DNA of 64,000 bases from Planctomycetota bacterium (GCA_965223265.1 OZ244999.1:7520001-7584000); one strand, 5' to 3'; numbered from the stretch's first letter, positions 61,837 through 63,781 are shown. Notes: generated by a model from the letters alone, not told the origin. Numbers and translations are program-made.

Positions 61837-62520
61837 TCACACCGTGATCGTTTCGCCAAATTCGAGAACGCGTGCGCTGCGGCCGTTGGCTGCGACTTTC
61901 TCAACGAAAACGTTCGGATCGACGTAGATCAGGTCGAACGTCTTGTAGTGCATGGGGATCGCCAGCTGCGGCTGGAGAAACTCAACCGCTTTCGCGGCGT
62001 CGTCGATGCCCATCGTGAAGTTGTCCCCGATTGGCAAAATGGCAACATCGATGGCGTCGAGCTCGCCGATCAGTTTCATGTCAAGAAAGAGCGCTGTGTC
62101 GCCGGCGTGGTAGAGCGTTTTGCCGTCCGCGGTGATCAGAAGACCAGCGGGATTGCCGAGCTCGACGATCCCGTCACCGGTCTCAAGACCCGAGCCGTGG
62201 TGGGCGAGCGTCAGCTTCAACCGTCCGAAATCGAACTGTCGCGCGCCGCCGAGATGCATCGGATGAACCTTTGCGCCTTGGGCGCCGCAGTGCGCAGAGA
62301 GCTCGTACGTGGCGACGATCGTGGCGTCATTTCGTTTCGCGATGTCGACCGCGTCGCCGAGATGATCGCCGTGCGCATGTGTGACCAGGACGTAATCACA
62401 CTCCACATCCTCGGCCTTAACGGCTGCGTTCGGATTGCCGCTCAAAAATGGGTCGATGACGAGACGATGCGAAGCCGTTTCGACGAGAAACGCGGAGTGG
62501 CTCCAGTAGGTCAATTTCAT
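61837..62520 (-). CDS. Metal-dependent hydrolase (UPF0173, MBL fold)
   Basis: HSAF, IDPFLSGNP, THAHGDH.GD, YHAGDT, LPIGD.FTMG and PMHY.TF. Confidence 0.92.
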   Translation of the reverse strand: MKLTYWSHSAFLVETASHRLVIDPFLSGNPNAAVKAEDVECDYVLVTHAHGDHLGDAVDIAKRNDATIVATYELSAHCGAQGAKVHPMHLGGARQFDFGRLKLTLAHHGSGLETGDGIVELGNPAGLLITADGKTLYHAGDTALFLDMKLIGELDAIDVAILPIGDNFTMGIDDAAKAVEFLQPQLAIPMHYKTFDLIYVDPNVFVEKVAANGRSARVLEFGETITV

Positions 62521-62806
62521 GTCGGGCAACCCCCGTTGTCAGGATCAACTTGCAGTGGAATCAGGATCAGAGAGGGTAGAGACTACCTCGGCTGCGGTCA
62601 TGCCCGCAAGACGCGGCGCTGCTTAATGAGCACTGGTTGTCGCCAGGGCTGATCGGCCCGCGCCAGCGCGGACATTCACGGTCTCTACAGTTCGGCAGAA
62701 CACTGGGAATCGACACGGAGCGGACTTTTGTTCTTGTCTCCGCGACACACCCAAAGCTAACTTGAGTGACGTGTTGCTCATCACATTTTTCGGATCGGAG
62801 GCAGTC

Positions 62807-63781
62807 ATGATTGACGCGCGCAAAGCGGTCGTGTCGCTGGTCGCCGGCGTTCTCTGCAGCTCGGCGTTCGGAACAGATGTCGGACAGGAGGCGCCAGCGC
62901 TTCACGCCAAGGAGTGGCTCAACGCAGCCCCAGGGTTCTCTTGGTCGCAGCTCAAGGGACGACTCATCCTCGTCGAGAACTGGGCCACCTGGTGAGGCCC
63001 TTGCATCACGTCGATCCCGCACCTCAACGATCTCAAACGTGAGTACGAGGGTAGGGGATTGACGGTCATCGGAGTTGCCGATGAACCCAAGGGACGGATC
63101 CAACGTGTCGTCAAGAACGAGGAAATCGAATACATCGTCGCGCTGCGCTCCGGCTCGGCGTTTAACTCACGTGCCTACCCCACGGCATGGCTCGTCAGCC
63201 CCAAGGGCAAAGTCGTCTGGAAAGGGCACCCCGCTAGTCTCGACGGCAAGAAGATCGAGAAGTTTCTCAAGGGCGCGCGCTTCGAGCCGAAGTTTTCTCT
63301 GCCGAGGAAACTGAAAGCAGCGTCTCGATACCTGGGCAAGAGGGATTGCGCCAGAGCGATTCGCGAGCTCGAGAAACACGTGGCAGGGAAAGACGAAGCC
63401 GTCGCGCGGGTGGCAAAGGACACCATTCGGGAACTGAAGCGTTACGCGAAGCGCGAATACAAGTTCGCCGGTAGGTTCGCTAAGTCTGGCGAATACGCCG
63501 ACGCGGTCGCGATTCTCGAGTTTCTTGAGAAGTCGTTCAAAGGCTTCGAAGCAGGAGAGCGAGCCAAAGTCAAGCTGAAGGCCTGGCGTGACGACAAGAA
63601 GATCAAACTCGAAATCGAAGCCAGCTCTCAGATCGCCAAAGCAAGGACGCTGATTTCACGTCGGCAGTACGCGCCGGCGTATAAAGTCCTTCAGAATGTA
63701 GCGCGAAGAAAGAAGTACAAGGACACGCGGGCAAAAGAAATTGCCGTGAAGTTAGCGAAAGAGATCAGACGCTACGTTTAA
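62807..63781 (+). CDS. Secreted TlpA/thioredoxin-like disulfide reductase with in-frame UGA (UxxC) and basic helical C-terminal domain, candidate selenoprotein, 324 aa
   Basis: ORFs 62762-62995 and 63059-63781 join in frame: TGG GCC ACC TGG TGA GGC CCT TGC = W-A-T-W-U-G-P-C, then IPHLN.L...Y...GLTVIGV and cis-Pro YPT...V...GKVVW.GHP. GGAGG RBS precedes the ATG at 62807. Signal peptide present. Confidence 0.87.

Follow-up and report, generated by a model that had tools for sequence, protein, structure and literature searches.

The question raised by this locus is whether an in-frame TGA ends a short reading frame or encodes selenocysteine (Sec, U). The locus lies in a 64,000-nucleotide (nt) stretch of a Planctomycetota bacterium genome (GCA_965223265.1, OZ244999.1:7520001-7584000), called the window here, and positions are counted from the first letter of that stretch. 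The open reading frame (ORF) 62807-63781 has a single in-frame TGA at 62993-62995, which is codon 63 in the context ENWATW-U-GPC, and the frame stays open for 261 further codons, up to the TAA at 63779-63781. A first-pass annotation of this DNA had placed the TGA at codon 63, at the first Cys position of a WCGPC thioredoxin motif, with an open frame of about 260 codons beyond it, and both statements can be read directly from the sequence. With translation table 11 two ORFs result instead, one of 77 aa that ends at the TGA and one of 240 aa that starts from the TTG at 63059. The entry for this genome in the protein collection (P0002) is that 240-aa ORF, being 100% identical and covering 74% of the query. 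When TGA is read as U, the product has 324 residues, with U63. In all likelihood this is a genuine, mis-annotated selenoprotein gene, and its layout is as follows.

62797..62801, plus strand: GGAGG resembling a Shine-Dalgarno sequence, 5 nt upstream of the ATG, seen directly in the sequence; in support of a start at 62807.
62807..63781, plus strand: predicted complete selenoprotein gene, 324 codons including UGA as Sec63, then the TAA stop.
62807..62872, plus strand: predicted Sec-type (secretory) signal peptide, residues 1-22, with MIDARK, a hydrophobic core and AFG/TD, by inspection.
62879..63271, plus strand: thioredoxin-fold domain, ResA/TlpA/DsbE-like, residues 25-155, from Pfam, Foldseek and a PDB-sequence profile.
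62993..62995, plus strand: UGA, read as selenocysteine U63 from orthologue comparison, first residue of the U-G-P-C motif (62993-63004).
63009..63064, plus strand: conserved extended hairpin, a candidate non-canonical selenocysteine insertion sequence (SECIS), from folding, shuffles and covariation.
63059..63781, plus strand: 240-aa ORF with a TTG start, as reported by gene callers; an artefact of the TGA, giving a shortened product.
63278..63778, plus strand: conserved basic, all-helical, TPR-like C-terminal domain, residues 158-324, with eight helices in an AlphaFold2 (AF2) model.

The TGA is conserved among relatives. Of 60 related genomes searched in six frames, 38 have a full-length match at E <= 7e-60, as does the window's own genome, and every match contains exactly one TGA. 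Thirty loci were fetched, the window's own and 29 relatives with 35-42% protein identity, and the TGA is the first redox-motif position in all 30. The motif is WATWUGPC in 27 of these and WRTTUGPC, WATYUGPC or WATTUGPC in one each. The orthologues are 324-342 codons long and share the same layout at 30/30 loci, with an ATG 60-73 codons before the TGA and 261-274 codons after it. Seven of the 30 also terminate on TGA, so TGA is still a stop codon in those genomes. Metagenomic full-length homologues (P0003-P0007, 38-42% identity) have WATWCGPC, with the Cys aligned to U63.

The family extends across the phylum. An even sample of 301 genomes, searched at a threshold of E <= 1e-25, contains matches in 106, and these amount to 139 rows, 116 of which span at least 230 query residues and 23 of which are shorter. 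Among the 116 long matches, a single TGA is present in 95, no stop in 18 and some other stop pattern in 3. The TGA position was verified in fetched loci, among them 20 distant loci of the TGA type and every one of the 18 without a stop. U stands at the motif in 19/20 of the distant TGA forms (18 U-G-P-C and one U-T-P-C, with L235 unparsed). The no-stop forms have Cys at the Sec site in 15 cases (13 TGC and 2 TGT), Asn in one and Ser in one, and L225 is unparsed. Residue 125 is Pro in all aligned sequences and is presumably the cis-Pro of the thioredoxin fold. Scans of genome and metagenome contigs with a Cys back-translated motif were set aside, as the matches listed include only TlpA-like paralogues (best full-length L052, 29% identity).

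A quick maximum-likelihood tree was made from 64 distinct rows, of which 43 are Sec forms, 19 Cys forms, one Asn and one Ser, with nine unparsed loci and duplicates left out. Parsimony gives 11 state changes on this tree, and at least five are forced by well-supported branches. The window's gene belongs to a clade with 96% support that contains 30 Sec, 5 Cys and 1 Asn forms. Since the tree is midpoint-rooted, no direction is claimed for the Sec/Cys changes. The TGA at codon 63 is almost certainly a genuine selenocysteine codon.

A nonsense change from TGC to TGA in a decaying gene, or a sequencing error, would need one base only, and the gene is split in its annotation. However, the same TGA with intact flanking frames is found in the 30/30 loci at 35-42% identity and in 19/20 distant loci. 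In addition, contigs from two runs (two samples of one study, possibly the source of this DNA) have 0 differences over 62780-63120. Conservation of the TGA and agreement of the contigs together exclude a nonsense mutation or sequencing error for practical purposes, and we give this explanation next to no weight. A 196-base contig from another study, under another organism label, is identical to 62919-63016, including the TGA, and then runs into unrelated sequence.

A second alternative takes the called genes at face value, with two separate products, a 62-residue N-terminal peptide and the 240-aa protein from TTG 63059. Gene callers do give the 240-aa ORF (P0002), and many database entries of 195-285 aa start past the motif, but the called starts of such shortened entries range from 3 to about 40 residues past it, as for artefacts. 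The division would also interrupt the thioredoxin fold within the active-site motif itself, and the larger product would lack the signal peptide. Moreover, the segment that separates TGA and TTG is conserved as in-frame protein sequence (GPCxxxIPHLNxL), and full-length Cys forms exist. Two separate products are a very improbable outcome of this locus.

Two-domain homologues with other residues at the Sec/Cys site also occur. L217 (in G001, which is of the same family as the window's genome) and L228 (in G167) keep the two-domain layout with Asn or Ser at this site, and the two-domain homologues P0175 and P0174 have Asn/Ser there or no CxxC. These are presumably redox-inactive or single-Cys forms. 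Elsewhere in the phylum, other genomes have paralogous thioredoxin-like genes in tandem clusters, with six adjacent stop-free matches at G059:C1:1454338-1459559 and a further cluster at G077:C22:15107-16819. Two adjacent TGA-containing thioredoxin-like copies lie at G182:C180:22398-24390.

The host genome, a single contig of 9.18 Mb, encodes the machinery for selenocysteine insertion. It has a tRNA-Sec (70.3 bits, cut-off 47) with an ARAGORN anticodon of TCA, a SelB (324 bits, cut-off 242), and SelA and SelD at 548 and 309 bits, both over their curated cut-offs. The SelD match (G000:C1:3460739-3461653, L019) lies inside a 790-aa open frame, compared with a profile of 311 positions, and this frame may be a fusion or merely a long open frame.

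The protein resembles exported thioredoxin-fold enzymes. All 30 orthologue N-termini, by inspection, begin with a basic n-region and a hydrophobic core, followed by an AxA-like site ahead of (G)SxVGxxAP; in the AF2 model the predicted local distance difference test (pLDDT) is 49-55 over residues 1-20. Residues 25-138 match Pfam AhpC-TSA at 45.7 bits (cut-off 26, 7.5e-12) and Redoxin at 39.2 bits (cut-off 26.6, 7.6e-10), and GSHPx and Thioredoxin also match. In the AF2 model (pLDDT 89.3), residues 25-155 adopt a thioredoxin fold, with U-G-P-C just ahead of helix 64-83. Foldseek relates this model to 4nmu (1.3e-9), ResA 1su9, DsbE 3gl3 and DipZ, with a template modelling score to the target of 0.72-0.80. 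The family profile finds ResA (2.1e-24), TlpA (2.6e-10) and CcmG (1.5e-9) among PDB sequences, through its first 160 positions only. Scores fall below the NCBIfam cut-offs for ResA (NF002854, 55.3 vs 170 bits) and TlpA (NF047696, 37.7 vs 230 bits). These sequence and model comparisons support a ResA/TlpA-type thiol-disulfide oxidoreductase. The Pfam matches and the modelled fold agree with the first-pass view that the thioredoxin fold is completed after the TGA. Its broader proposal, an exported Sec-containing thiol-disulfide oxidoreductase, also holds up, with export being predicted, given the Sec machinery, the TGA in 30/30 and 19/20 loci, Cys in 15/18 and the ResA/TlpA fold.

The mRNA beyond the UGA contains a stable hairpin at 63009-63064. 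Its 56 nt fold at -28.1 kcal/mol (z -4.91), and 0/200 dinucleotide shuffles are equally stable. The 20 base pairs form four helices (63009-18/63055-64, 63021-24/63049-52, 63028-29/63046-47 and 63032-35/63040-43) below an AACG loop at 63036-63039, and the base of the hairpin lies 13 nt past the UGA. In a 72-nt context, all 26 distinct orthologue sequences fold into a single extended hairpin, with the base 13-16 nt after the UGA and the loop in columns 41-48. When a 57-nt segment is slid over 291 offsets, +15 is the most stable position on average (-24.0 vs a mean of -15.1, SD 2.4). The hairpin position is the most stable of the 291 in the window's own gene. The +15 offset is the minimum of the gene in 6/26 genes, and at most 12 segments are more stable in 21/26; the hairpin is weak in L023 and L027 by this sliding fold.

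Synonymous-codon resampling, which keeps the encoded protein, gives z < -2 in 25/26 orthologues (mean -3.13), and z -3.82 for the window's gene, where 0/300 resamples are equally stable. The same region in 14 Cys-form genes has a mean z of -0.19, with 1/14 below -2, so the hairpin is absent from the Cys forms. In a gap-free alignment, 77.1% of cells are paired in register vs 27-49% when the structure is slid, 16 cells are compensatory, with both sides changed (0/500 shuffles have as many), and the covariation score is 0.208 vs a maximum of 0.159 when slid, figures that are to be read with the reference structure being derived from one of the aligned sequences.

A different stem had been put forward by the first-pass annotation as the element, pairing 62998-63003 with 63046-63051, 63006-63011 with 63037-63042, and GATC with GATC. 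This stem is not conserved, since 49.8% of its cells pair, equal to the shuffle mean and reached by 262/500 shuffles, and the figure for its central helix is 24%. It can form, as the minimum free energy (MFE) structure in a 66-nt context (-19.4), but is not the MFE structure in 71-73-nt contexts. The fold of 62990-63060 is unremarkable (z -1.3) because the 3' arm of the 63009-63064 hairpin is cut off. RNAalifold on the gap-free alignment gave almost no signal (-0.8 at 75 nt), since the register of the pairs differs from lineage to lineage, and it was superseded by per-sequence folds, sliding-segment profiles and pair counts. Rfam gave a chance row only (mir-52, 12.8 bits, E 7).

The small-genome clade (family f6; columns 4-19 of alignment A2, loci L026-L051) has a second, short hairpin, GGNCCYUGCAAGGGYC, on the G-P-C-K-G codons directly after the UGA. 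The window's gene is without this short hairpin and has I-T-S in place of K-G-Q. Column 9 of A2 (63001, at the third position of the Pro codon) shows covariation with column 56 (63048), with CG in 10, UA in 7 and UG in 6. There are hints that columns 7-11 form an alternative long-range helix with columns 54-58, competing with the long hairpin for the same 3' strand.

The long hairpin can be set against the model of the bacterial SECIS (bSECIS), which asks for a 3-9 nt loop with G at one of its first two positions, an upper stem of 4-16 bp, a UGA-to-loop distance of 16-37 nt and an MFE of -7.5 or lower (PMC13188914). The MFE and the loop size of the hairpin 63009-63064 lie within these limits. 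The other genes were compared with the model through our own rule-based scan, which is distinct from bSECISearch. Among distant Sec orthologues, 8/11 parsed sequences pass, with a G-containing loop 16-18 nt past the UGA and a conserved CCGCAC as the 3' arm. The most stable fold of the distant orthologues L234, L240, L245 and L246 is at +15 or +18, which is the long-hairpin position, and of these L234 only passes the canonical scan. None of the 14 Cys forms passes (0/14). The gene family has two RNA solutions, and they are tied to the Sec state.

In the same genome, four more genes interrupted by a TGA (loci L210-L213) are candidates for selenoproteins, as listed here.

G000:C1:8399910-8401178, plus strand: FdhA-like Sec candidate, CSRA-U-HAPTVAGL; loop GGUCU, spacing 18.
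G000:C1:8072153-8072548, minus strand: Prx-like Sec candidate, VYGDT-U-PVC; fails the canonical scan.
G000:C1:1991706-1992056, minus strand: second TlpA-like Sec candidate, FWGYG-U-GPC; loop GGC, spacing 17.
G000:C1:8063664-8063936, plus strand: GPx-like Sec candidate, NVASK-U-GLT; loop GUC, spacing 25.

The rule scan passes 3/4 of these, namely the FdhA-type, the second U-G-P-C and the GPx-like candidates. The contrast with the long hairpin raises another explanation, in which selenocysteine plays no part and the UGA is instead read through or recoded, for example by a near-cognate tRNA that inserts Cys or Trp with stimulation by the hairpin, and the gene makes a non-selenoprotein in this clade. 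A stable structure after a stop codon can promote read-through, and the hairpin is without the canonical loop G and spacing while the FdhA-like, GPx-like and second UGPC genes of the genome have canonical elements. However, the UGA stands exactly at the catalytic Cys of the homologues, which is the classic Sec/Cys pairing. Of the parsed distant orthologues that share this UGA, 8/11 have canonical-rule hairpins, and the genome has the full Sec machinery. An inefficient read-through would also be odd to keep in dozens of genomes, when TGC is one base away. Recoding without selenocysteine is, on balance, unlikely.

The explanation that we prefer is that the gene encodes one secreted selenoprotein of 324 residues, and we consider it very likely as a whole, including its decoding, export and role. 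Translation would start at 62807, and SelB with Sec-tRNA(Sec) would insert selenocysteine at the UGA at 62993, helped by the mRNA hairpin at 63009-63064. Decoding of the UGA is probably SelB-dependent through this hairpin, which would then act as the SelB-binding element. Sec63 of U-G-P-C would be the attacking residue and Cys66 the resolving residue. Membership in the family suggests that the protein acts outside the cytoplasm, where it may carry out disulfide reduction or exchange through a selenenylsulfide intermediate, together with a client-binding module. The direction of electron flow would have the enzyme re-reduced by a DsbD/CcdA-type membrane transporter. A single DsbD_TM gene (86 bits) is present elsewhere in the genome and lends support, as do the other TGA-interrupted candidates of this genome, the FdhA-type site among them. 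The TPR-like C-terminal domain probably holds a protein substrate or partner.

Several points weigh against this explanation. The orthologues are kin, so counts across them overstate their independence, and part of the hairpin falls on conserved codons (Pro-His-Leu-Asn and Glu-Phe/Tyr). The hairpin breaks two rules of the bSECIS model, with a spacing of 40 nt (16-37 in the model) and an AACG loop that has no early G. The rule scan passes 2/26 orthologues, compared with 2534/6907 pseudo-sites (37%) in the same genes. Because canonical and non-canonical hairpins occur in one genome, a single SelB would need to recognise both types. The TPR matches in Pfam are weak, and there are none in the window's own copy. 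Finally, no redox partner is adjacent, as no CcdA/DsbD, Sco or cytochrome maturation gene was found next to the gene at the loci examined.

A further reading of the long hairpin is possible, although we hold it only tentatively and find it rather doubtful. It may be a second class of bacterial SECIS, with 20 base pairs and an A-rich loop about 40 nt from the UGA that has no loop G, and it may have replaced, in one Planctomycetota class, the short canonical G-loop SECIS that is still present in distant orthologues of the gene. It would then be served by the same SelB as the canonical FdhA element, and would drive the synthesis of a secreted Sec-TlpA with a new TPR-like client-binding domain, perhaps the selenoprotein with the widest spread in the phylum.

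The C-terminal domain is all-helical in the AF2 model, where residues 158-324 form eight helices with a pLDDT of 94 and a predicted template modelling score of 0.84. The Lys-rich helical region described in the first-pass annotation is thus present in the model. TPR_16 matches weakly in 8/18 orthologues and TPR_14 in 5/18 (best E 5e-5 to 2e-4), and the domain has no family of its own in Pfam or NCBIfam. Foldseek gives nothing significant for it in the PDB, the best E being 0.32 (BamD and designed TPRs), and a PDB sequence profile gives no match under E 0.1. The best Z in VIA is 8.6 over 60 residues, which is under the level that the tool holds meaningful for helical repeats. Look-alikes of the domain in the Atlas are hypothetical proteins from Planctomycetota, and some of them carry TPR families.

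Searching with a profile of the domain gives 925 cluster representatives at E <= 1e-3, of which 161 reach 1e-10 and 37 reach 1e-30. In the best 150 representatives the start of the domain is bimodal, with an empty gap between the modes. The domain starts at residue 60-110 in 57 of them, as in the TGA-shortened type, and at 140-205 in 47 that are full-length; 5 are longer and 41 shorter. Nearly all representatives of 195-285 aa are without a CxxC (73/74), and many start right after the motif. Those of at least 300 aa have a CxxC in 21/53 cases and are without one in 32/53. It had been suggested earlier that the architecture may be undescribed. This stands in so far as neither Pfam nor NCBIfam has a family for the domain and no solved structure matches it significantly, but the fusion is widespread (925 representatives) and the thioredoxin-fold UxxC kind has long been known.

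Thioredoxin-fold UxxC selenoproteins have been catalogued since 2005-2006 (PMC1088965; PMC1794560, Table 1; PMC13188914, table). The families there include 'Prx-like thiol:disulfide oxidoreductase' (PF00578), 'Thiol:disulfide interchange protein' and 'Redoxin family protein' (PMC1794560, PMC13188914), so the kind is already known. The window's gene is like these in its thioredoxin fold, the N-terminal Sec of its UxxC, its Cys homologues, its best Pfam match (PF00578) and a coding-region hairpin after the UGA. By description, it differs from them in the TPR-like C-terminal domain of about 165 residues and, in the window's clade, in the long hairpin outside the loop-G and spacing rules. The 2026 review mentions Planctomycetota 0 times (PMC13188914), whereas the present family is found across that phylum.

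The protein shares its fold, active-site position and predicted N-terminal export signal with ResA, TlpA and CcmG (DsbE). Unlike them, it has Sec for the first Cys and an extra C-terminal domain, and no cytochrome c maturation, Sco or CcdA genes are adjacent. NCBIfam NF041054, 'ResA-like WAxxUGC motif-containing protein', is a curated selenoprotein model of 354 positions, which has W-A-x-x-U in common with the window's protein and a similar length. The protein is not a member, as it scores 34.6 bits vs a 300-bit cut-off, over residues 28-96 only, and has U-G-P-C rather than U-G-C.

The planctomycete strain P1 has two 'thiol-disulfide isomerase-like thioredoxin' candidates, each split into two genes (PMC4807772, Table S9, 2016). 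Their closest hits have Cys at the site, and they are marked 'SECIS present: no' under bSECISearch defaults (PMC4807772). By these descriptions, the candidates are like the window's gene in the split annotation, the Cys in the closest hit and the failed canonical SECIS. The passages of PMC4807772 on them contain no conservation, hairpin or domain analysis.

The long hairpin resembles the E. coli fdhF-type SECIS as a stable coding-region hairpin soon after the UGA, with an MFE and loop size inside the rules. It differs in that its loop starts 40 nt past the UGA, has no early G and tops 20 base pairs in four helices. CnoX/YbbN chaperedoxins also combine a thioredoxin-fold domain with a helical, TPR-like domain behind it, which may hold clients. 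CnoX is cytoplasmic and is not known to have a CxxC or Sec, and it is not among the matches listed in the Foldseek or PDB-profile searches. The literature searched contains no description of the helical-domain fusion, the spread in Planctomycetota or the conserved non-canonical hairpin, and the family may already be listed in supplements to the papers behind references 61 and 62 of the 2026 review.

The surroundings of the gene differ between relatives. In the window, the gene is flanked by a divergent MBL-fold hydrolase at 61837-62529 on the minus strand (Lactamase_B_2, 1.6e-26) and by a convergent DUF1501 protein from 63812 to beyond 64000, also on the minus strand (5e-123). Neighbours are not conserved across the family, and a divergent DUF1573 gene is found in 10/18 relatives and a convergent GAPDH gene in eight. 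A sigma-70 promoter scan gave 0 sites, and the 2 terminator-like sites equal the chance expectation.

The gene is split or shortened here and, judging from 57 of the best 150 database representatives, in many other genomes, so a phylum-wide selenoprotein family is largely invisible in protein databases. The finding suggests that Planctomycetota carry out selenium-dependent redox chemistry outside the cytoplasm. The family also provides a natural set of variants of one enzyme, with Sec, Cys, Asn or Ser, and the tree has at least five well-supported changes of state. Within it, some members have a canonical SECIS, others the conserved non-canonical hairpin, and the Cys forms neither. If both SECIS types are served by one SelB in one genome, what SelB recognises becomes directly testable.

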